This document shows, in pieces, positions 1 through 6,663 of a stretch of DNA of 6,663 bases. Under the pieces are notes generated by a model. That model did no database searches and was not told the origin of the DNA. It worked only from the letters and a program-made list of their open reading frames with translations. A program made the position numbers and the translations under genes. This stretch comes from a virus (taxonomy: Duplodnaviria; Heunggongvirae; Uroviricota; Caudoviricetes), in the IMG/VR virus record IMGVR_UViG_2648501669_000009, positions 1 through 6,663 of that record, one strand, 5' to 3'. Each line of letters begins with the position of its first letter. The stretch's first letter is position 1.

Positions 1-191
1 TTGTGCAGTGTGTTGAACGACGCCCATACCACGTCGTTATACAATTCAATAACTGGCTCAATTATTTTCCCGATTGCCCAGACAAAAATTAGAGGGGATA
101 TCGGTATCATTAACACGATAAACAGAATGAGAAACAGAAATTCTGTTGTTCTACTCTTTCGTGGATATTTTTTTCTGAATAATGTGACCAT
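1..191 (-). CDS. Partial CDS (first 63 codons, continues past window start): predicted small membrane protein
   Basis: Reverse-complementing 1-191 gives ATG at 191-189 and an open frame to position 1: MVTLFRKKYPRKSRTTEFLFLILFIVLMIPISPLIFVWAIGKIIEPVIELYNDVVWASFNTLH. It has a basic N-terminus followed by about 25 hydrophobic residues (one likely TM helix). It is absent from the ORF track because no stop lies in the window. AGGAGG (minus, 219-214) sits upstream, separated from the ATG by a GC hairpin. The start is uncertain (an ATG at 110 is also in frame). Confidence 0.4.
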   Translation of the reverse strand, partial: MVTLFRKKYPRKSRTTEFLFLILFIVLMIPISPLIFVWAIGKIIEPVIELYNDVVWASFNTLH

Positions 192-197
192 TCATTA

Positions 198-219
198 CCG
201 CCCTTTCGGGCGGCCTCCT
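198..219 (-). promoter_or_regulatory. Shine-Dalgarno AGGAGG plus a 6-bp GC stem with GAAA loop placed between the SD and the ATG at 191
   Basis: Plus strand 198-213 is ccgccctttcgggcgg (minus-strand RNA CCGCCC-GAAA-GGGCGG) and plus 214-219 is cctcct (minus AGGAGG). The linear SD-to-AUG distance is 22 nt, but about 6 nt if the hairpin folds. Confidence 0.35.
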
Positions 220-253
220 GATGTTTTGAGGGTGCAGGAATCCCTCCGGTTAA

Positions 254-280
254 GGATTTAATAAAAATCACTTCTGATTT
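254..280 (-). terminator. Weak hairpin with U-rich tail downstream of the 319-630 gene (possible partial terminator)
   Basis: Plus 265-280 is aaatca-cttc-tgattt, a perfect 6-bp inverted repeat with a 4-nt loop. On the minus strand it is followed by UUAUUAAAUCC. The stem is A/U-rich, so termination would be weak. Confidence 0.25.
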
Positions 281-318
281 AAATTTTCAGTGTTTTGTTG
301 CCAGGTGATTTATCGCCT

Positions 319-630
319 TTACGCTTCAGCCTTATTTCTCAGCCATACACAAACAGGACCATCTTCAGTGTCATGAATGGAACCAATGAACCAGCCATCG
401 CCCTCTGGTCGTTCCGGTTCCCATGCTGAAATATCAGGGCCATCTGCGTCCAGGTTAAAATCATCTTCATCCATAGTGCAGATAGTCCACTGAAGATTAT
501 TTGCCTCCATCCACGCGTTAAATTCCTCTGTGGAAATATATTCACGACCTGCGCAAAACTTTTCATACTCAGGATGTGTCCAGCAGCCATATTCATCACG
601 TACTACTGGTATTTCTTTAATTTCATTCAT
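319..630 (-). CDS. Hypothetical acidic protein, 103 aa (phage accessory; family not recognised)
   Basis: ORF MNEIKEIPVVRDEY...VWLRNKAEA. Its ATG at 630 overlaps the upstream stop in an ATGAATGA arrangement, with GGGAGA about 6 nt upstream. Very acidic and Trp-rich. Confidence 0.7.
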   Translation of the reverse strand: MNEIKEIPVVRDEYGCWTHPEYEKFCAGREYISTEEFNAWMEANNLQWTICTMDEDDFNLDADGPDISAWEPERPEGDGWFIGSIHDTEDGPVCVWLRNKAEA

Positions 631-877
631 TTCTGTTCTCCCACGTTTTCAGACTTTCACCACAGAACGGACAAAATGAAACCCGCACTGGTGATTTAGA
701 AAATTCACCGGAACGCAACATCACCAAATCAGGGCCGCGAGTTAAACTCTCATTCCAGATTTTGTATATCAGCAGACCTTTTCGCGTCGTGTATTCAGCA
801 TCATGCTCAAGGGATTTTGCCAGTGCCGTACACGGTTCTATCTTGTTGCCATTAATTTGGCATTTTGACTCACTCAC
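623..877 (-). CDS. Hypothetical Cys-containing small protein, 84 aa (putative zinc-binding)
   Basis: The track ORF 623-910 begins at a TTG inside the upstream gene. A GTG at 877-875 is preceded by AGGAGA plus a 6-nt spacer and overlaps the upstream TGA as GTGA, so it is the preferred start. The product (VSESKCQ...FCPFCGESLKTWENRNE) has Cys6, Cys16 and a C-terminal CPFC, a possible split zinc site. Confidence 0.6.
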   Translation of the reverse strand: MSESKCQINGNKIEPCTALAKSLEHDAEYTTRKGLLIYKIWNESLTRGPDLVMLRSGEFSKSPVRVSFCPFCGESLKTWENRNE

Positions 878-1341
878 TGGTTGTCTCCTTTGCGAATCTG
901 TTCCGCACAATGCAACAATGCTTCTGTCACTTCCTTAAGCGTTACAGTATCGGCATCATCCAGTTCTGCAACTTTTGCATGCCTGACAAACGCCGCGCGA
1001 AGCTCGTTAAACGCCACCGCCTGTATATCAGCCAGGAAAGCGTCAGTAGCTGGCGTTTCAGGCTTGAATCCATTTGCATCGCGTGGGCTGATGTCATCGC
1101 TTGTATAAATAAAGCAATCATCCTTAATGAATTTATTTAACCCCACATTCTCCACTGCCAGCGTCGCAAAATTAGCTTCCAGTTCTGCAATGCGTTTGCT
1201 TTGGGCTTCCCGTTCATCCAGCAGTTCCAACACAACCTGAGGTGTGACTTTCATGCGAAATGCCAGCAATTTTTGTGGTGTGGCTGCGATTTTTATTGCT
1301 TCTGCCACATCACGCAGTACCTGGTAATTAATGTTGCTCAC
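874..1341 (-). CDS. Coiled-coil protein, 155 aa, possibly Ead/Ea22-like
   Basis: The track ORF starts at ATG 1368 with no RBS. A GTG at 1341-1339 is preceded by AGGAGG (plus 1348-1353 cctcct) with a 6-nt spacer. The product (VSNINYQVLRDVAEAIK...ELEANFATLAVENVG...) has a predicted coiled-coil N-terminal half. The Ea22 resemblance is from memory only. Confidence 0.65.
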   Translation of the reverse strand: MSNINYQVLRDVAEAIKIAATPQKLLAFRMKVTPQVVLELLDEREAQSKRIAELEANFATLAVENVGLNKFIKDDCFIYTSDDISPRDANGFKPETPATDAFLADIQAVAFNELRAAFVRHAKVAELDDADTVTLKEVTEALLHCAEQIRKGDNQ

Positions 1342-1633
1342 TGGTTGCCTCCTGGAAAATAACTGCATGCCCCAGCTTCTCCGCCAGTGCCAGTTCCGCC
1401 TTAGCGCCTGCTGACCGCTGCCAGCCTTTCAGCATGTAAATCGCATCCACACAACGAATCATTGCCATGCAAATATCCATGTAGTGTGGCTGTGTCAGTC
1501 CGTCCGGAAGTACTGCCGGGTTTAAGACTGTATGCCCTTCCCGTTTCAGTTCCTCTTCCGCCTTGTGAAACGCCTCACGGTTGAAATTTTCATATCCCGT
1601 CATTGGACCGGCGATATAAACCCTCACCCTCAC
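1328..1633 (-). CDS. DUF4406-type protein (nucleoside 2-deoxyribosyltransferase-like fold), 101 aa
   Basis: The N-terminus MRVRVYIAGPMTGYENFN matches the YIAGPMTG signature I associate with the DUF4406 family. GTG start at 1633 with AGGAGG 8 nt upstream; it overlaps the upstream stop as GTGA. Confidence 0.8.
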   Translation of the reverse strand: MRVRVYIAGPMTGYENFNREAFHKAEEELKREGHTVLNPAVLPDGLTQPHYMDICMAMIRCVDAIYMLKGWQRSAGAKAELALAEKLGHAVIFQEATSEQH

Positions 1634-1947
1634 TCCTGTATCCTCCTGTCGAAATAAACATAGTTATTCACCGTGCGCAGCGGCATTTCGAGTTTTTCCG
1701 CTATCTCGCGACGAGAAATACCCTGCTCATGTAGCTTTCGTATCAGCTCAACACTGCTCCAGGGGATTTTTACCGACTGATGAAAATCACCTCGCAATAT
1801 CAGACTGATACCCAGTTCCCGCGCTTTTGTTCTTACTGCCACCTCCGTGCGACCAGTCAGTTTCCCGATATCTTTCACCCGCATGGTGCCAGCACACTGC
1901 CGGAGTATCAGAATTTCAGCCCTGCACCACTTCTTCCAGTTGCTCAC
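1630..1947 (-). CDS. Small DNA-binding protein with helix-turn-helix motifs, 105 aa (alternative start ATG 1884 gives 84 aa)
   Basis: The track ORF 1630-2034 overlaps the upstream gene by 80 nt. A GTG at 1947-1945 lies 5 nt after the upstream TAA and shares the GTGAGCAAC start context of the gene at 1341. HTH-like segments: GKLTGRTEVAVRTKARELGI and ISRREIAEKLEMPLRTVNNYV (NinH-like pattern). The start is not certain. Confidence 0.55.
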   Translation of the reverse strand: MSNWKKWCRAEILILRQCAGTMRVKDIGKLTGRTEVAVRTKARELGISLILRGDFHQSVKIPWSSVELIRKLHEQGISRREIAEKLEMPLRTVNNYVYFDRRIQE

Positions 1948-1952
1948 TGCTG

Positions 1953-2693
1953 TTACTCTCTGGTGGCAGTAATCTGTCGGAGAATATCCCGGTACTTGTT
2001 CAGCTCCCGCAGCGCGGCACAGACTCGCTCCCATTTCCGGATATCACTTTTCGCCCGACGCAGCTCGCGGTTTGCCTGTCGCAGCGATGGCAGAACCAGA
2101 TTATCCACTCGCTTCTCAAGCGGCTGCACAATGTCTGCCACAGTTTCTGTTTTAATATCTTCCTGTGTTGCAGCTTCCTGTACTGGTAACGCAACACATG
2201 CAGGCTGAGGAAAGGCTTTACCATCAGTTTCCGCTACCGATGCCGCTTTCGGCTCTGCTGGTAAATTACCGCCCGGCATGCAGTAGCGAAATTTACCGTT
2301 CTGGTTTACGCGTGCCAGCCGCCCCGTTGCGGTTACTACCGCCAGCGTGGAAGCAACCTTGCGAGTGCTGACACCGAACTTACCCGCCAGTTCCTCACAC
2401 GTTTTAGCTCCCTCCTGACCGATAAACTCAATCATCATGTCAGCGGTAACTTTTCGTTCGACCTCCCTGGTTAGCACATCCTGTACTTCAGATTGTGCTG
2501 GCTGCTCTTCGGCTACCCCTGATTCACCTTCGCCAGCCACACGCCAGGTGTATACGCTTTTATCAACGAAGCCAGCCTTTTTCAGTTCCCACAGCTCGTT
2601 CAGTACTTCTTCACGACTGATATCAAGTCGCGCAGCCAGCTCTACCGACGTGGCTTTTCCCATCGCTTTCAGTGCGTCAAAAACAGTCTCCAT
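1953..2693 (-). CDS. Tandem winged-helix-like protein with C-terminal coiled coil, 246 aa (phage early protein, function unknown)
   Basis: The track start (2744) overlaps the DnaC-like gene. The internal ATG at 2693-2691 has GGGAGG 8 nt upstream and sits 22 nt after the DnaC-like stop. Two similar segments ([30 protein letters not shown] and [34 protein letters not shown]) precede a basic, heptad-like C-terminus. Confidence 0.75.
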
Positions 2694-2715
2694 TAAAATT
2701 TCCTCCCGGTAAAAA

Positions 2716-3462
2716 TTACTTCTCAATACCTGGCTGACCAACATTCGGGCGCCAGCTCTCCCAGTTAAAATTCACCCATCGCCCGCCGTTCATGGTCATG
2801 CGATCCATAATCCGCTCGCCGAGCAATGTTTTCATGGCCTCATAGTTCAGGTTTGTCAGCATTCCCACGCTGCGCATCGACGCTGTCCGGCGATCAACAA
2901 TCTGGTGCAGTACCACCTGCTCGTTTTTCGTCTCGCGCTGAATGCCAATTTCATCAAGAACCAGCAGATCCACTTCGCACAGTTCCCGCAAAAATTTTTC
3001 GCCTGATTGCCCGTCGTCATAGCTGGCGTGTAGAGCACTCATAACATCAGCCACGGTAACCACAATCACTGTCTGGCCATCTTTCAGCAGGCGATTCCCG
3101 ATAGCCGCCGCTAAGTGGTTTTTCCCGGTACCAGGTTTTCCGCTGAATGCGAAATTTGTGCATCCGGTCATCAGTTCATCGGCGATGGATTTCACCTGGC
3201 TCAACGCGTATCGCTGGCCGTCATTCTGCACCTGGTAATTCGCAAACGAGCACTTGCGGTGCAACGGCTGGATGCCGGAGCGATTCAGAATTTTTTCCAC
3301 CCGCAACTGACGATTCTGGCGGTTGATCTCCTCGCAACGCTTCTGGCCTTCTGCAAGTTGCCACTCGCGCCACTCGTCCACTGTTCGGTATGGCGCGGTT
3401 ACATGCTGCGGAGCCAGCTTACGGATGCGTTCAAGAACACCGCCTGTCGCAATATTTTTCAT
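2716..3462 (-). CDS. DnaC-like AAA+ helicase loader (lambda P functional analogue; YdaV-type replication protein)
   Basis: Walker [16 protein letters not shown] and Walker B LLVLDEIG, 248 aa. The ATG at 3462 follows the O-like stop by 6 nt, with a GGGGG SD. Confidence 0.9.
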
Positions 3463-3468
3463 GCTTCG

Positions 3469-4416
3469 TTACCCCCTGAATCCCGGCGGAATTTCGGCGT
3501 CCGGCTCGGAAATATGATTCACGCAACGCTGTACAGGCGAACGCCCCAGACGAATAACCAGCTCATCCCATTTTTCGCGAAGCTTTGACGGGCTCATGAC
3601 GTTTTTTACCCAGAATGGATCCCGCTGTGCCCGACCAAACATTTCGCAAATTTGCCTGTGAGTTCTGCCATCAAGCATCCGCATTGTGCGCACGTCATTG
3701 GCCCATGCAGTCCAGTTGGGTTCTTTCGGTCGCATGATTTCGCCATCATCGCTGGCAGCCTGCTCGTAAAGACTCACGATTCGTCCCCAGATCCACTGCG
3801 CACACGCCAAATCTTCCTGGCTGCCCCACTGGCGTTTTTTCGCACTGAACACAACCGCGTCAGGGTGTCGGGTTAAAAAATCCTGTTCAGCCGTCTGCGG
3901 GTCCGGTTGCGAAGCGTCCGGACGAAAAGATCTTTTATCTGACGGATCAGGTTTTAATACTGACGGATCGGGGCCAACCATCGCCCCCCTAACCGGATGT
4001 TTTTTATCAACGGTTGATCCATCAAAATTTGAGGGGTCAACCGTTGAGGGGTCAATATTTGACGGGTCATTTTTTACCGGGTTAATTTTTCTTTTCGGTT
4101 TATATGCCTCACGCGCCGCCGCTGCTGCTGCTTCGAGTTTTTCCACATTAAGACGGTAGATATTGCTTTCATTACGCCCACCGACCTTACGTTCTTCCTT
4201 CGTCAGCCAGCCGTTCTTTTCCAGTTCTGCTATCGCAGCTTTAACCGTTGATTCACTCTTTGCCCCAATCTGACGACGAATGGTCTCCACTGCAGGCCAT
4301 GACACACCTTCGTCATTGCTGTAATCTGCAAGGCGAGCCATTACTGCCACCCTGGATAAGATCATGCCGGTGAAGGCGCACCCTTCCCAGACAAGACCAT
4401 GAAGCTTGCTGCTCAT
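3469..4416 (-). CDS. Phage replication initiation protein (lambda O-like: N-terminal winged-helix DNA-binding domain, repeat/poly-Ala linker, C-terminal domain)
   Basis: 315 aa. The N-terminal domain is HTH-like (VSWPAVETIRRQIGAKSESTVKAAIAELEKNGWL). The central region encodes EAAAAAARE and DPS repeats (DPSNIDPSTVDPSNFDGSTVD) that coincide with DNA iterons. It sits immediately upstream of the DnaC-like gene. GGAG SD 7 nt before ATG 4416. Confidence 0.85.
   Translation of the reverse strand: MSSKLHGLVWEGCAFTGMILSRVAVMARLADYSNDEGVSWPAVETIRRQIGAKSESTVKAAIAELEKNGWLTKEERKVGGRNESNIYRLNVEKLEAAAAAAREAYKPKRKINPVKNDPSNIDPSTVDPSNFDGSTVDKKHPVRGAMVGPDPSVLKPDPSDKRSFRPDASQPDPQTAEQDFLTRHPDAVVFSAKKRQWGSQEDLACAQWIWGRIVSLYEQAASDDGEIMRPKEPNWTAWANDVRTMRMLDGRTHRQICEMFGRAQRDPFWVKNVMSPSKLREKWDELVIRLGRSPVQRCVNHISEPDAEIPPGFRG
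3940..4074. repeat. Iteron-like direct repeats (core TGA[C/G]GG[A/G]TCA, at least 5 copies) inside the O-like gene, followed by an AT-rich tract: putative prophage replication origin
   Basis: Copies at 3940-3949 tgacggatca, 3961-3970 tgacggatcg, 4030-4039 tgaggggtca, 4045-4054 tgaggggtca and 4060-4069 tgacgggtca, the last three as tandem 15-bp units. Inverted repeats tcaacggttga (4008-4018) and tcaaccgttga (4037-4047). AT-rich tract about 4069-4105. Confidence 0.6.
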
Positions 4417-4440
4417 AAAAAAACTCCGAACACCGTGCTT

Positions 4441-4866
4441 TTAGTGCATCACCAAGGCATTTCCCGCCGGACCACCACGATTCATCTGATTGAAACCAGC
4501 GATCGCCACTGCGACAAAATCATCAGCGTCTCTCACCAGTCGTTCCCGCGTCTCCACCAGCTCCCGAAACCAGGCTGAACTGTGGCTGCGCATTCGGGCC
4601 ACCAGCAGAGGAGGCATTGCTTTTTCGATCGCTGGTAACAACGCCTGAATTTTTTTAACCGCATCAGGGGTGTCTTTCTCCACCCAGCGGAAAATTTTCT
4701 GAGTATTGCGAGCCAGGGCTTCCGGATGGCTGTCGTCATATAATTCCGGGAACGTCATACCCAGCTCAAAATAAGCCCGGGTTATTTCAGCTGCCGGAAC
4801 TTTTTCACCGTCCGGATGCGCCCAGGCATTCATCGCCATGCGGATGTGTTCATGCTTGATTTTCAT
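4441..4866 (-). CDS. ydaT: YdaT-family protein (CII-like regulator of Rac/CP-933P-type prophages), 141 aa
   Basis: N-terminus MKIKHEHI. Its ATG overlaps the ydaS-like stop as ATGA (4866-4863). Second gene of the rightward-early-type operon, directly before the O-like gene. Confidence 0.8.
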   Translation of the reverse strand: MKIKHEHIRMAMNAWAHPDGEKVPAAEITRAYFELGMTFPELYDDSHPEALARNTQKIFRWVEKDTPDAVKKIQALLPAIEKAMPPLLVARMRSHSSAWFRELVETRERLVRDADDFVAVAIAGFNQMNRGGPAGNALVMH

Positions 4867-5165
4867 GAATCAACTCCATCAGATAAGCATGCACTACAAT
4901 CACCTTCAGCATGAACTACATGTGTTTGCCCCAAACGAATGCCGCTCGCATACTCAGGCCAAATAAGCTCCCAATCATGGGGTCGTAGCTCCGCCCTACT
5001 TACTTGGCCTTCCGTCGCAGATTCGATCATAAGGGCGCGGGTTGGAGATATAGCTGCTCGTCCAGACGCCATTTGCGATAAGTAAGATGGCGATACACCA
5101 AGTCTGGCCGCGAATTTCTTAGCATCACCAACCCTCAATGATTTAATAAACTCTTTTAATGTCAT
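4863..5165 (-). CDS. ydaS: YdaS-family Cro-like HTH regulator, 100 aa
   Basis: HTH DAKKFAARLGVSPSYLSQMASGRAAISPTRALMIESAT. First gene transcribed divergently from the repressor gene. GAGGAAGG SD before ATG 5165. Confidence 0.8.
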   Translation of the reverse strand: MTLKEFIKSLRVGDAKKFAARLGVSPSYLSQMASGRAAISPTRALMIESATEGQVSRAELRPHDWELIWPEYASGIRLGQTHVVHAEGDCSACLSDGVDS

Positions 5166-5175
5166 ACCTTCCTCG

Positions 5176-5251
5176 GTTTAGTGTTTTTTTGTGAGTTTAG
5201 TGTTTAATAAACCATTAAGTCAAGTATTTGCTTGTTTAGTGATTACTAAAG
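5176..5251. promoter_or_regulatory. OR-like operator cluster: three 18-bp sites each starting GTTTAGTG
   Basis: Sites at 5176-5193 gtttagtgtttttttgtg, 5195-5212 gtttagtgtttaataaac (GTTTA-N8-TAAAC dyad) and 5234-5251 gtttagtgattactaaag, all in the 97-bp interval between the divergent ydaS-like and repressor genes. Confidence 0.5.
5194..5223 (-). promoter_or_regulatory. PR-like sigma70 promoter for the ydaS-ydaT-O-DnaC operon
   Basis: Minus-strand -35 TTGACT (plus 5218-5223), 18-nt spacer, -10 TAAACT (plus 5194-5199). The operator at 5195-5212 covers the spacer and -10. Confidence 0.4.
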
Positions 5252-5256
5252 ATAAT
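5228..5256 (+). promoter_or_regulatory. PRM-like promoter for the repressor operon; predicted leaderless mRNA
   Basis: -35 TTGCTT (5228-5233), 17-nt spacer, -10 GATAAT (5251-5256). The ATG at 5263 lies 6 nt after the -10 with no SD, so the transcript would start at or next to the start codon. Confidence 0.45.
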
Positions 5257-5262
5257 TACCGC

Positions 5263-5634
5263 ATGCAAAAAAAAGAAATTCGCCGTTTACGTCTCAAGGA
5301 GTGGTTTAAAGATAAAACTCTGCCACCCAAAGAGAAGAGCTACCTATCTCAACTAATGAGTGGGAGGGCCTCGTTTGGAGAAAAGGCTGCCAGAAGAATA
5401 GAGCAAACATACGGGATGCCGGAAGGGTATCTGGATGCGGAATACGCAGAACAACCGGAAGTTTCTCCACCACATGCAGGGTTAACGTCTAATCAACTGG
5501 AATTATTGCAGATTTTTTCAGCCTTCCCTGAGGATGAGCAACGCCAGATAATCAGCGAGTTAAAGCAGAAAAAAGAATCAATGGAAGATCTCATAGCGAG
5601 ATGGATTGCGGCGCAAAAATGCCGCCGCGCCTGA
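5263..5634 (+). CDS. paaR2: XRE-family HTH repressor (CI-like prophage repressor; PaaR2-type regulator of a three-gene TA operon), 123 aa
   Basis: The track ORF begins at GTG 5191, only 25 nt from the divergent gene. The ATG at 5263 leaves room for both promoters. HTH KSYLSQLMSGRASFGEKAARRIEQTYGMPEGYLD. Divergent from the Cro-like gene and followed by an antitoxin-toxin pair. Confidence 0.7.
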   Translation: MQKKEIRRLRLKEWFKDKTLPPKEKSYLSQLMSGRASFGEKAARRIEQTYGMPEGYLDAEYAEQPEVSPPHAGLTSNQLELLQIFSAFPEDEQRQIISELKQKKESMEDLIARWIAAQKCRRA

Positions 5635-5654
5635 GTTATAAAACCGGAGGAAAC

Positions 5655-5846
5655 ATGAATAGAGCCCTTTCACCAATGGTTTCTGAATTTGAAACCATTG
5701 AACAAGAAAACAGTTACAACGAATGGCTGCGTGCGAAAGTAGCAACGAGCCTTGCAGATCCGCGCCCAGCAATTCCCCATGACGAAGTTGAGCGCAGAAT
5801 GGCAGAACGCTTTGCTAAAATGCGCAAGGAACGGAGCAAGCAGTAA
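5655..5846 (+). CDS. paaA2: PaaA2-type antitoxin, 63 aa
   Basis: The track ORF starts at ATG 5601 inside the repressor gene. The ATG at 5655 is preceded by GGAGGA (5645-5650). The 63-aa product (MNRALSPMVSEFETIEQENSYNEWLRAKVATSLADPRPAIPHDEVERRMAERFAKMRKERSKQ) matches the length and character I recall for PaaA2. Confidence 0.8.
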   Translation: MNRALSPMVSEFETIEQENSYNEWLRAKVATSLADPRPAIPHDEVERRMAERFAKMRKERSKQ

Positions 5847-5847
5847 A

Positions 5848-6126
5848 ATGTTACCCGTGTTATGGCTTGAAAGCGCAGATACCGACCTAGATGATATAGC
5901 TAGCTATATTGCTCGTTTCGACATAGATGCGGCTGAACGCTTATGGCAGCGATTAAGGGGTTGTGTGCTGCCGTTATCCGAACATCCGTATTTATACCCA
6001 CCAAGCGACAGAGTACCTGGCTTGCGTGAGATTGTAGCCCACCCTAACTATATAATTCTATACCGCGTAACAACATCAAGCGTTGAAGTAGTAAACGTGA
6101 TCCACGCAAGACGCCAGTTTCCCTAA
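5848..6126 (+). CDS. parE2: ParE-family toxin (ParE2-type), 92 aa
   Basis: ATG 5848 lies 1 nt after the antitoxin TAA (TAAaATG). The product MLPVLWLESADTDLDDIASYIARFDIDAAERLWQRL...ILYRVTTSSVEVVNVIHARRQFP has a ParE/RelE-like layout. The longer track ORF from 5752 is an in-frame upstream extension overlapping the antitoxin. Confidence 0.85.
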   Translation: MLPVLWLESADTDLDDIASYIARFDIDAAERLWQRLRGCVLPLSEHPYLYPPSDRVPGLREIVAHPNYIILYRVTTSSVEVVNVIHARRQFP

Positions 6127-6155
6127 CTTTCACTACCAATAGAAACATAACAACC

Positions 6156-6187
6156 GCAACGACTTTATCAAAAGCGTTGTGTTTGTT
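6156..6187 (+). terminator. Weak putative terminator after the TA operon (tImm-like position)
   Basis: CAACG (6157-6161) pairs with CGTTG (6175-6179) across a 13-nt loop, followed by the U-rich gtttgtt (6181-6187). Short stem, so low confidence. Confidence 0.3.
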
Positions 6188-6197
6188 ACGCTCCGTG

Positions 6198-6238
6198 GTT
6201 TAGTTTTTACTTGACTTAAGTTTAATGTTTATTAAACT
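6198..6238 (+). promoter_or_regulatory. OL-like operator copies plus PL-like promoter for the early-left genes
   Basis: 6220-6237 gtttaatgtttattaaac matches the OR site 5195-5212 at 16 of 18 positions. 6198-6215 gtttagtttttacttgac shares only the left half. -35 TTGACT (6211-6216), 16-nt spacer, -10 TAAACT (6233-6238), the same hexamers as the PR-like promoter. Confidence 0.45.
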
Positions 6239-6417
6239 AAAAATACCAACCCACCCCGCCCCACAGAATGCAGGGCAATACTTCGAGTTACCAGGCAGTG
6301 GTCAGGGGTTAAGTAGCCAGCCCGAGGCGTAAGAACATGACGGCAGGGTTCAACTTTAATAACTATGCAGCAGGTTTTTGTTCCGCTACCCCGGCGTTAA
6401 GGGGAAATGAGGTCAGC

Positions 6418-6573
6418 ATGGATACTATCGATCTTGGCAACAACGAATCTCTGGTGTACGGCGTGTTTCTCAACCAGGACGGTACGTTCACCGCGATGAC
6501 GTATACCAAAAGCAAAACGTTTAAAACCGAATCTGGCGCGCGTCGCTGGCTGGAAAGAAATTCAGGTGAGTGA
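6418..6573 (+). CDS. Small early-left protein, 51 aa (I believe it resembles Rac YdaF, unverified)
   Basis: ATG 6418 with GAGG 5 nt upstream. Product MDTIDLGNNESLVYGVFLNQDGTFTAMTYTKSKTFKTESGARRWLERNSGE. The track start at 6337 has no SD and would give 78 aa. Confidence 0.6.
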   Translation: MDTIDLGNNESLVYGVFLNQDGTFTAMTYTKSKTFKTESGARRWLERNSGE

Positions 6574-6574
6574 T

Positions 6575-6663
6575 ATGGATTTCGACACAATCATGGAAAA
6601 GGCTTACGAAGAATACTTCGAAGGCCTTGCCGAAGGCGAAGAAGCTCTCAGCTTCAGTGAGAG
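6575..6663 (+). CDS. Partial CDS (first 29 codons, runs off window): small acidic early-left protein (possibly YdaG-like, unverified)
   Basis: ATG at 6575, 1 nt after the upstream TGA, with AGGTGAG upstream. MDFDTIMEKAYEEYFEGLAEGEEALSFSE... is open to the window end. Confidence 0.5.
   Translation, partial: MDFDTIMEKAYEEYFEGLAEGEEALSFSE

Follow-up and report, generated by a model that had tools for sequence, protein, structure and literature searches.

The translation-initiation leader of ead/Ea22-like genes recurs as a gene boundary in lambdoid prophages

Two successive gene junctions of a prophage operon carry nearly the same 17 nucleotides, which raises the question of whether this sequence is a linker for recombination, a cassette for translation initiation or a repeat without meaning. 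The DNA analysed (hereafter the window, 6,663 nucleotides, positions 1 to 6,663 of the IMG/VR record IMGVR_UViG_2648501669_000009) is the early-right operon of a Rac-like lambdoid prophage, encoded on the minus strand in the order cro/ydaS-like, ydaT-like, O-like, DnaC-like, DUF1627, HTH, DUF4406, ead/Ea22-like, 84-aa and 103-aa genes. In agreement with a previous sequence-only reading, we found the motif CTCACTGGTTG[T/C]CTCCT at 873-889 (CTCACTGGTTGTCTCCT) and at 1337-1353 (CTCACTGGTTGCCTCCT), and no further copy in the window at up to 3 mismatches. Its reverse complement is AGGAG[A/G]CAACCAGTGAG (the linker is also written AGGAGGCAACCAGTGAG), which on the coding (minus) strand gives AGGAG[A/G]CAACCA-GTG-AG. 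The proposal that this corresponds to an SD, a spacer and a GTG start could be confirmed, both GTGs being in frame with predicted ORFs (877..875 with ORF 623-910, and 1341..1339 with ORF 874-1368).

The two copies bracket one gene (874..1341, minus strand, 155 aa, GTG start), which forms a cassette between them and belongs to the ead/Ea22-like family. Indeed, Pfam PF13935 (Ead_Ea22) matches its residues 2-63 (E 8e-10, 39.9 bits, gathering cutoff 27), its N-terminus VSNINYQVLRD fits the family head VS[KEN]I[DN]YQALRE, and its orthologue in the related locus L001 is annotated as an ead/Ea22-like family protein. At the second copy (1337..1353, minus strand), the SD AGGAGG (1353..1348) and the spacer CAACCA precede the GTG (1341..1339) of this gene. 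The upstream DUF4406 gene (1328..1633, minus strand; Pfam PF14359, E 1e-37) runs through the same bases in another frame (..QEATSEQH-stop), the linker together with the Ea22 head providing its last 7 codons; its 3' end is native only as far as CAGGAGG, after which other relatives go on with other spacers and genes. At the first copy (873..889, minus strand), AGGAGACAACCA codes for the canonical ead/Ea22 tail ..IRKGDNQ, with the stop TGA at 876..874, and at the same time supplies the SD and spacer that precede the start (GTG, 877..875) of the 84-aa gene (623..877, minus strand), a gene of unknown function whose product begins VSESKCQ and to which PGAP also gives 84 aa in L001. This gene overlaps the 103-aa gene (319..630, minus strand) by ATGAATGA (623-630), which is another type of junction, and forms with it a module (about 195-877) seen behind several different upstream genes.

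The longest ORFs would start at 910, 1368 and 2034, and these starts had been called wrong. We reached the same conclusion, because the PGAP reference annotation of the nearest relatives takes the same GTGs, while the upstream contexts differ or carry in-frame stops. An in-frame TGA lies 5 codons upstream of the GTG of the 84-aa gene in 41 of 80 relatives, the GTG starts, that of the ead/Ea22-like gene included, match both the PGAP and the GenBank annotation of the closest loci, and in 84 of 133 linker contexts no other start codon lies in frame before the GTG. The HTH DNA-binding gene (1630..1947, minus strand, 105 aa) starts at the GTG 1947..1945, and the DUF4406 gene at the GTG of the overlap at 1630-1633. 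For the DUF1627 gene (1953..2693, minus strand; 741 nt in L001 according to PGAP), the true start is probably the ATG at 2693 rather than the longest-ORF ATG at 2744, with a GGGAGGA SD read from the sequence 8 nt upstream and the same Pfam outcome for the resulting 246-aa form. For annotation purposes, the starts would thus be set at GTG 877, 1341, 1633 and 1947 and at ATG 2693.

Four consecutive genes of the window begin with GTGAG. The GTGA overlaps and the products starting with VS that had been described before are both present in the sequence, the ead/Ea22-like stop lying over the start of the 84-aa gene at 874-877 and the HTH stop over the DUF4406 start at 1630-1633. Genes with overlapping stop and start codons (ATGA or GTGA) in polycistronic operons can be coupled by termination-reinitiation. 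The junctions of the window resemble such coupled genes by these overlaps, by an SD AGGAG(G) that lies 6-7 nt before the GTG within the coding sequence of the upstream gene, and by the weak GTG start. In contrast, the DUF4406/Ea22 junction is a 14-nt overlap (1328-1341) rather than a GTGA overlap, and no SD-sequestering structure is predicted. RNA folding at the junctions revealed no SD-occluding structure (z -1.0 to +0.3), and a hairpin or another RNA element was rejected since the folds are no better than those of shuffles. Translational coupling between such genes of the window is plausible.

Within the window, the statistics are only suggestive of a non-chance 17-mer pair. This particular pattern was found twice in 0 of 200 shuffles of the window, some 17-mer pair at up to 1 mismatch was found in 8% of dinucleotide shuffles, and a second, unrelated 16/17 pair (2965 and 3788) lies inside genes. 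Decisive support was obtained outside the window. The exact 17-mer is present in at least 120 IMG/VR contigs, and among the matches listed all 134 enterobacterial occurrences are located at stop/start gene junctions; one match (GC 0.69) does not follow this pattern and looks like chance. Likewise, 80 loci picked independently via the 84-aa protein (0.46 Mb) contained 19 copies compared to 1e-4 expected by chance. The search of related prophage DNA that the sequence-only reading had called for thus returned the motif far above chance. A scan of genome_contigs with the 17-mer, which gave 120 matches in Cryobacterium, Paraburkholderia, Streptomyces and diverse MAGs, was discarded as evidence on host range because about 140 chance matches are expected in 596 Gb.

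A third junction had been proposed to be related to the linker through a shared 11-mer, GTTGCTCACTG. This 11-mer is present at 1333-1343 and at 1939-1949, but the relationship did not hold. Relatives of the HTH gene have only GTGAG in common there, the start of the HTH gene shares only CAGTGAGCAAC with the Ea22 start, and the relatives start with GTGAGTGGC (7 of 9 contexts) behind a CGGTGA overlap, so that the resemblance is a matter of chance and specific to this lineage. Moreover, exact 11-mer direct pairs are common (19 in the window and about 8 in shuffles) and the 11-mer is not significant. The site at 1939-1949 was therefore rejected as a linker copy.

By looking at what surrounds the 17-mer, we found that it heads ead/Ea22-like genes in 102 of the 135 occurrences listed from IMG/VR and that it is the commonest translation-initiation leader of this family, composed of a perfect or near-perfect SD, a spacer of 6-7 nt, the GTG and the first bases of a Ser codon. 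About 10 other families found in enterobacterial context (DUF7446, DUF7739, PAPS reductase and the 84-aa gene among them) also start on it, bringing the downstream families to about 11. The upstream genes that end inside the linker represent at least 10 unrelated families, including Ea22-like, DUF2737, DUF4406, DUF1627, DUF7446 and the 84-aa gene, and the same cassette is found behind different upstream families with the exact linker each time. Among the 135 occurrences listed, 91 upstream tails read ..RKGG/DNQ-stop with a GTGA overlap, and 38 use the EATSE frame, in which the tail is ...EATSE(Q/R)x-stop with a 14-nt overlap. In a sample that is unbiased with respect to the leader, since Ea22 heads were chosen by the coding pattern IDYQALRE, the exact leader was found in 30 of 68 contexts and about 16 more had it at up to 2 mismatches; the same Ea22 head also occurs with quite different leaders (TGAAGGATGGCGAGAAT and GGGTGATGTGACATGAA). 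Most loci with the linker have a single copy. In HK620 it is present with 1 mismatch at hkaH/hkaG (ead), and lambda ea22 likewise begins with GTGAGC. Hence, the recurrent junction motif is real and sits at gene boundaries as had been claimed, but it is the native leader and tail end of the ead/Ea22-like family and no general operon linker.

The first copy illustrates how such a leader may come to precede another gene. The 84-aa gene starts with GTGAGTGA in 69 of 80 relatives and with GTGAG in 73 of 80, and this GTGAG is kept under several unrelated upstream sequences. The GTGAG within 873-889 thus belongs to the 84-aa gene itself, and the leader and this gene share only 5 nt at their joint. 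The first copy is the tail of the Ea22-like gene and would once have led an Ea22-type neighbour located downstream; it is now fused at GTGAG to the unrelated 84-aa gene that itself starts with GTGAG. The second copy (1337-1353) is the leader of the resident Ea22-like gene.

Comparison of prophages sharing only one flank indicates that similarity ends at the edges of the motif. In pairs with the same left and unrelated right flanks, it collapses at +17 to +20 in 257 of 449, and in the converse pairs (same right, unrelated left) at -1 to -6 in 223 of 362, these being counts of pairs and thus non-independent events. Loci chosen via the 84-aa gene have 60 homology endpoints at window positions 871-880. 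In addition, we identified pairs of loci that differ only by the presence or absence of one cassette flanked by two linker copies, namely L065 and L151 (241 nt), L020 and L152 (256 nt), and L073 and L063 (1237 nt); in these pairs the linkers are intact and the outer flanks are 88-99% identical. The corresponding precise loss of the Ea22 cassette (DUF4406-linker-84-aa gene, predicted as TTYCAGGAGRCAACCAGTGAGTGARTC) had no match in IMG/VR. The E. coli strain 88-3493 (H16) was considered as such a deletion and rejected, as a different cassette of 51 aa is found there. We also rejected a target-site duplication of an inserted element as the source of the linker pair, because the copies extend into different conserved flanks (tail versus head) and the linker is single in most loci.

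Taking all our observations together, we propose, with a probability of about 0.75, that the linker is the RBS and GTG start of the ead/Ea22-like family, reused as a boundary for the swap, gain and loss of single genes. Given that Ea22-type genes often lie in tandem or in cassette arrays, the same bases also code for the end of the upstream gene. Whichever genes lie next to it, the linker would preserve a strong RBS together with a stop/start overlap, so that swapped genes would still be expressed. Its short direct repeats, shared by different prophages as well as inside one prophage, could also offer a crossover place for Rad52-type recombinases (RecT, Red-beta, Erf) or RecA, by which single cassettes would be exchanged, inserted and deleted with reading frames intact. 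Both the role of the linker as homology for recombination and translational coupling across it are inferences. The conservation of the linker alone proves no recombination role, as the SD, the upstream coding sequence and the start codon impose a triple constraint. Red-beta and RecT can work with homology that is short or diverged, and minimal efficient pairing takes 23-27 bp for Red-beta and 31-34 bp for RecA (PMC3945230). With 17 bp, the linker is below these lengths; for efficient homologous exchange, the conserved tail or head next to it would have to take part, and these are missing in many contexts. Likewise, when the leader first became joined to a foreign gene such as the 84-aa gene, the two shared only GTGAG, and this must have been an illegitimate or microhomology event. 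The recombination linker and the initiation cassette that the sequence-only reading had opposed to each other both fit, the former with the mosaic joints and cassette variants and the latter with the SD, spacer and GTG, and they are not mutually exclusive. We regard as rather doubtful a bolder version, in which the Ea22-type leader has been selected as an exchange site embedded in the RBS. Rac-, P22- and HK620-like prophages would then have an accessory-gene region that functions as a cassette array without integrase, where phage recombinases of the single-strand-annealing type insert, delete and shuffle single promoterless genes between linkers with the products staying coupled, and the tails ..RKGGNQ, ..EATSEQx and Ea22 K/R-G-E would be linker footprints rather than functional protein motifs.

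Among the other explanations, the Hendrix model of illegitimate recombination followed by selection is possible, although clearly less probable than the proposed reuse of the Ea22 leader. According to this model, joints form anywhere, survivors keep an RBS and a start at gene boundaries, and the 17-mer descends from one successful Ea22 junction. The 5-nt joint of the 84-aa gene with its own GTGAG, the other leaders of the same Ea22 head and a length under the published minimal pairing lengths (PMC3945230) all agree with it, as does the other cassette of E. coli 88-3493, whose joints lie immediately after AGGAGGCA and at the ATG that starts the 103-aa gene. Less easily accommodated are the linker-flanked cassette pairs, whose 88-99% identical flanks are the signature of crossing-over at short direct repeats, and the exact linker found every time the same cassette follows a different upstream family. 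Both accounts are partly compatible, in that illegitimate joins may make cassettes and homologous exchange may spread them. A purely functional cassette, with the whole 17-mer selected for translation efficiency through its SD, spacing, GTG and reinitiation after UGA and no role in recombination, we consider unlikely. The perfect AGGAGG SD, the 6-nt spacing, the GTGA overlap in 91 of the 135 occurrences listed and the four consecutive GTGAG starts would be expected from it; however, the spacer CAACCA is identical across unrelated neighbours, and we know of no requirement for it in initiation. The Ea22 head also works with other leaders (TGAAGGATGGCGAGAAT, GGGTGATGTGACATGAA), which argues that the exact sequence is inherited and not required. 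Moreover, no conserved RNA structure is predicted, and breakpoints at two edges as well as linker-flanked indels would be left unexplained.

A dedicated site-specific site with its own enzyme, such as an integron attC-like or homing site, is very improbable. Like integron arrays, the loci present small, promoterless and unrelated genes separated by a recurring boundary element, with presence/absence polymorphism. Unlike attC, the linker is no imperfect palindrome: we detected no inverted repeat or hairpin character at the motif, no significant fold and no integron-type integrase among the proteins of the window. Also, breakpoints are not confined to one fixed phosphodiester bond but occupy the two edges and reach into the neighbouring head and tail, and RBS plus coding sequence fully explain the motif. 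The exchange of cassettes would presumably rely on general or phage recombination. Finally, a meaningless repeat could draw on the shuffles with a 17-mer pair at up to 1 mismatch, the intragenic pair at 2965/3788 and the frequent 11-mer pairs, but for the 17-mer its probability is next to nil, as it is refuted by the junction copies in at least 120 IMG/VR contigs and in the independently chosen loci. For the 11-mer at 1939-1949, chance is the best reading.

Short conserved boundary sequences have been put forward as recombination sites in lambdoid phages, as related in PMC2327257 and PMC3029335 with reference to Susskind and Botstein 1978 and to Clark et al. 2001 (J Mol Biol 311:657, HK620). 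The linker is a clear new example of these sequences, combined with ordinary GTGA overlaps; it is real and of a kind already known. It is conserved in many prophages, lies at gene boundaries and has non-homologous flanks with joints abutting it. As described in these accounts, boundary sequences are likewise short, shared by many phages, found at gene or module boundaries between non-homologous flanks and proposed as a focus of homologous recombination. In contrast to them, what is exchanged at the linker is one small accessory gene and not a functional module, and the linker consists of an RBS, a start codon and upstream C-terminal codons in two frames. Its cassettes also recall the morons of lambdoid phages (Juhala et al. 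2000, as cited in PMC2327257), which are accessory genes in one phage that are missing from a close relative. Morons, as presented there, lie between genes with their own promoter and terminator, whereas the linker cassettes lack both and are built into the operon by overlapping stop/start junctions.

The finding leaves the general picture of lambdoid phages unchanged and its significance is modest. It nevertheless provides a concrete and abundant test case for mosaic joints made by homologous exchange at boundary sequences versus illegitimate recombination filtered by selection, and recombination assays could readily make use of the cassette indels flanked by linkers. It also offers an explanation for short C-terminal peptides common to unrelated prophage proteins, which are coded by the junction DNA of the next gene. 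Ead/Ea22-like proteins (PF13935; lambda Ea22, P22 Ead) have a conserved N-terminus, a coiled coil and variable C-terminal domains, as well as a conserved C-terminal K/R-G-E tripeptide whose significance is called unknown (PMC7093339, PMC10834534). The gene at 874-1341 resembles them by the family head, starting with GTGAGC as in lambda ea22, and by a conserved short tail. It differs by its position in the early-right operon past the replication genes, instead of the exo-xis region, and by its tail, RKGDNQ-stop versus KGE-stop. The same explanation can be extended to the K/R-G-E tail (PMC7093339), as the sequences suggest that both RKGDNQ and KGE may be imposed by junction DNA, that is, by the SD of the next gene (AAAGGAGAGTGAgATG in HK620 and AAAGGAGACAACCAGTGA here).

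Judging from Pfam scans, the minus-strand genes of the window are the early-right operon of a Rac-like lambdoid prophage: a YdaS/Cro-like gene (4863-5165), a YdaT-like gene (4441-4866), an O-like gene with HTH_36 (3469-4416), a DnaC/IstB-like gene (2716-3462), a DUF1627 gene (1953-2693), a gene for a small HTH protein of 105 aa (1630-1947), a DUF4406 gene (1328-1633) and an ead/Ea22-like gene (874-1341; PF13935, E 8e-10), with ORFs of 84 aa (623-877) and 103 aa (319-630) on the same strand. Reading the window directly, we found the 17-mer reported earlier at two of these junctions, CTCACTGGTTGTCTCCT at 873-889 (copy 1) and CTCACTGGTTGCCTCCT at 1337-1353 (copy 2), and no further copy with up to three mismatches. 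On the minus strand both copies read AGGAG[A/G]CAACCA GTG AG, that is, a Shine-Dalgarno (SD)-spacer-GTG unit, hereafter the linker.

The GTGs at 877..875 and 1341..1339 share the frame of the long ORFs 623-910 and 874-1368. The GTG starts proposed by the sequence-only reading are identical to those annotated in the two nearest annotated loci, E. coli STEC383 (annotated by PGAP) and phage Rac-SA53, both of which call the 84-aa protein, a 14-nt overlap between ead and DUF4406 (1328-1341 in the window) and DUF4406 in a 4-nt overlap; the 105-aa HTH gene is also called in STEC383. The GTGA overlaps at 874-877 and 1630-1633 are likewise present as claimed. For DUF1627, too, the longest-ORF start (ATG 2744, which would give a 29-nt overlap with the DnaC-like gene) is probably incorrect, the start being 2693: a GGGAGGA SD lies 8 nt 5' of this ATG, and the equivalent ATG is the PGAP start in the nearest relative. 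The feature amends how this region is annotated.

For the 17-mer, statistics inside the window are only suggestive and outside evidence is needed, some 17-mer pair with at most one mismatch arising in 8% of dinucleotide shuffles. A second, unrelated 16/17 direct repeat, CAGATCCACT[T/G]CGCACA, at 2965-2981 (DnaC-like gene) and 3788-3804 (O-like gene), is probably due to chance because its two copies read in different frames, and indicates that meaningless repeats of such length do arise here.

Scanning IMG/VR for the exact 17-mer gave at least 120 contigs, nearly all with the motif at enterobacterial gene junctions. Among the 135 occurrences in the loci retrieved, only one, on a contig of GC 0.69, looked like a chance match. 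The 17-mer headed ead/Ea22-like genes beginning VS[KEN]I[DN]YQALRE in 102 cases; the others headed about ten unrelated families in an enterobacterial context, including DUF7446, DUF7739, a PAPS-reductase protein, the 84-aa gene and several unknowns. In 91 of the 135 the upstream gene finished within the 17-mer, overlapping by GTGA and carrying the tail ..RKGG/DNQ; in 38 it continued across the 17-mer in a different frame, overlapping the next gene by 14 nt and ending ..EATSE(Q/R)x. At least ten families end in this way, including Ea22-like, DUF2737, DUF4406, DUF1627, DUF7446, the 84-aa gene and a zinc-finger protein (CxxC). Since the same family is found with and without the linker-encoded tail, the conserved unit is DNA and not peptide: DUF2737 ends ..WRKGGNQ at the linker and ..WRSGKK in HK620, DUF4406 ends ..IFQEATSEQH, ..IFQEVGSEY or ..IFQEKTQ, and DUF1627 ends ..ITATRE or ..AQLCQEATSEQD.

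We then sampled Ea22 heads, the conserved gene starts, through a degenerate coding pattern for IDYQALRE. The exact 17-mer was the leader in 30 of 68 unique contexts and about 16 more were within two mismatches, the rest having unrelated leaders; it is therefore the family's commonest leader haplotype and no requirement. Conservation of the head at the DNA level extends about 35-45 nt past the GTG. A second sample, 80 loci found through the 84-aa protein, held 19 copies of the 17-mer against 1e-4 expected by chance, so that the motif is indeed commoner than chance in relatives. The 84-aa gene starts with GTGAG in 73 of these loci and with GTGAGTGA(A/G)TC in 69, and this GTGAG persists below several unrelated upstream sequences. 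In 58 the junction reads ..GGAGGtggtgcgGTG or nearly so, and 41 of these have an in-frame TGA five codons 5' of the GTG. Together these data indicate that GTG 877 is the real start, that the 84-aa gene is the native owner of the GTGAG in copy 1, and that AGGAGACAACCA represents the canonical Ea22 tail or leader.

Sequence comparison shows strong mosaicism in region 300-2100: 80% coverage is reached by no E. coli genome (best, 78%), the best match in the phage collection covers 52%, and matches end close to gene junctions. Homology endpoints of the 84-aa-gene loci peak at 871-880 (60) and at 191-200 (56). The latter peak adjoins a GC-rich hairpin, CCGCCCTTTCGGGCGG (~200-216), and the site near 191-240 probably represents a terminator, marking the opposite edge of the 84-aa/103-aa gene module.

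Mosaic joints abut the motif, which is common to unrelated neighbours. Pairs were compared among 145 unique linker contexts. Of 449 pairs sharing the left flank but unrelated on the right, 257 lost similarity at +17 to +20 and most of the others where the Ea22 head ends; in the converse pairs it ended at -1 to -6 (223/362). Moreover, cassettes are gained or lost between linker copies. Nineteen locus pairs differ by one cassette exactly between two copies, with outer flanks 88-99% identical, for instance a DUF7446 cassette of 241 nt (L065 vs L151), one of 256 nt with an 84-aa-type gene (L020 vs L152) and one of 1237 nt (L073 vs L063). Such variants are what crossing-over between short direct repeats, or double exchange at shared linkers, would be expected to leave. 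In E. coli 88-3493 a different small cassette separates DUF4406 from the 103-aa gene; it is joined directly after AGGAGGCA on one side and at the ATG of the latter gene on the other. In several IMG/VR contigs (loci L018, L048, L076, L085 and L114) the Ea22-like gene behind DUF4406 stops after 16 codons (VSEINYQELRQVKEKA, then stop); these look like decayed cassettes because only linker and head remain.

The earlier interpretation, recombination linkers at mosaic boundaries or a shared initiation cassette, thus largely holds for the two 17-mer junctions but fails for the third, at the HTH gene start. The 11-mer GTTGCTCACTG shared by 1333-1343 and 1939-1949 is not significant, since the window contains 19 exact 11-mer direct pairs against ~8 in shuffles. 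In its relatives the HTH gene overlaps DUF1627 by CGGTGA and starts GTGAGTGGC, GTGAGCAAC is found in the window lineage only, and the likeness to the Ea22 start comes down to GTGAG plus four lineage-specific bases, which rules this junction out as part of the linker. GTGAG starts four consecutive genes (HTH, DUF4406, Ea22-like and 84-aa), which fits GTGA stop/start overlaps, here or in relatives; overlaps of this type are routine.

The linker would keep expression going through its strong SD and termination-reinitiation at GTGA, and would offer homology for RecT, Red-beta, Erf or RecA; no RNA structure was predicted at any junction. Short or diverged homology is a substrate for phage recombinases of the Rad52-like type; Red-beta pairs efficiently from 23-27 bp, and 5-13 bp suffice for RecET at low frequency (PMC3945230, PMC2327257). 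On its own the 17-mer is borderline in this respect; together with the neighbouring tail (CTTCGCAAA) or head it makes 25-60 bp. First-time joins to foreign genes must have arisen through illegitimate recombination or microhomology, because only GTGAG is in common.

The linker agrees with the "short conserved boundary sequences" proposed as recombination foci in lambdoid phages, as this concept is cited in PMC2327257 and PMC3029335 (Clark et al. 2001; Susskind and Botstein 1978), and is present with one mismatch at hkaH/hkaG (ead) of HK620. Having neither hairpin nor integrase, it is not integron-like. It is a clear, well-populated example of an already known kind of feature.

The linker also accounts for conserved C-terminal peptides of upstream proteins. 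The K/R-G-E tail of Ea22 proteins, a conserved tripeptide of unexplained significance (PMC7093339), is possibly explained likewise, by the SD of the next gene. Lambda Ea22 (L403, ~5845-5860, minus strand) and HK620 HkaG (L124, 2785-2800, minus strand) both end ...ATCAAAGGAGAGTGAGAT, the tail being encoded by AAAGGAGAGTGAGAT(G), a next-gene SD sequence. In HK620, AAGGAG is the SD of hkaF, whose ATG lies one base past the stop; the lambda junction is orphaned, its downstream gene being missing.

Elsewhere in the window, a 15-nt unit (TCAAAATTTGAGGGG and variants; 4007-4069) recurs about four times in the O-like gene, encoding a repeated DPSN/DPST peptide, together with a 20-nt palindrome at 4007-4047; by analogy with lambda ori, these look like replication-origin iterons inside an initiator gene. 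On the plus strand, a three-gene module (5263-6126), divergent from the cro-like gene, encodes a 123-aa protein without a match in the Pfam scan, a PaaA2 antitoxin (PF21217) and a ParE toxin (PF05016), resembling the prophage toxin-antitoxin system paaR2-paaA2-parE2. Possible operators are the TTTAGTGTTTAATAAA-type repeats found at 5188-5250 and 6213-6236.
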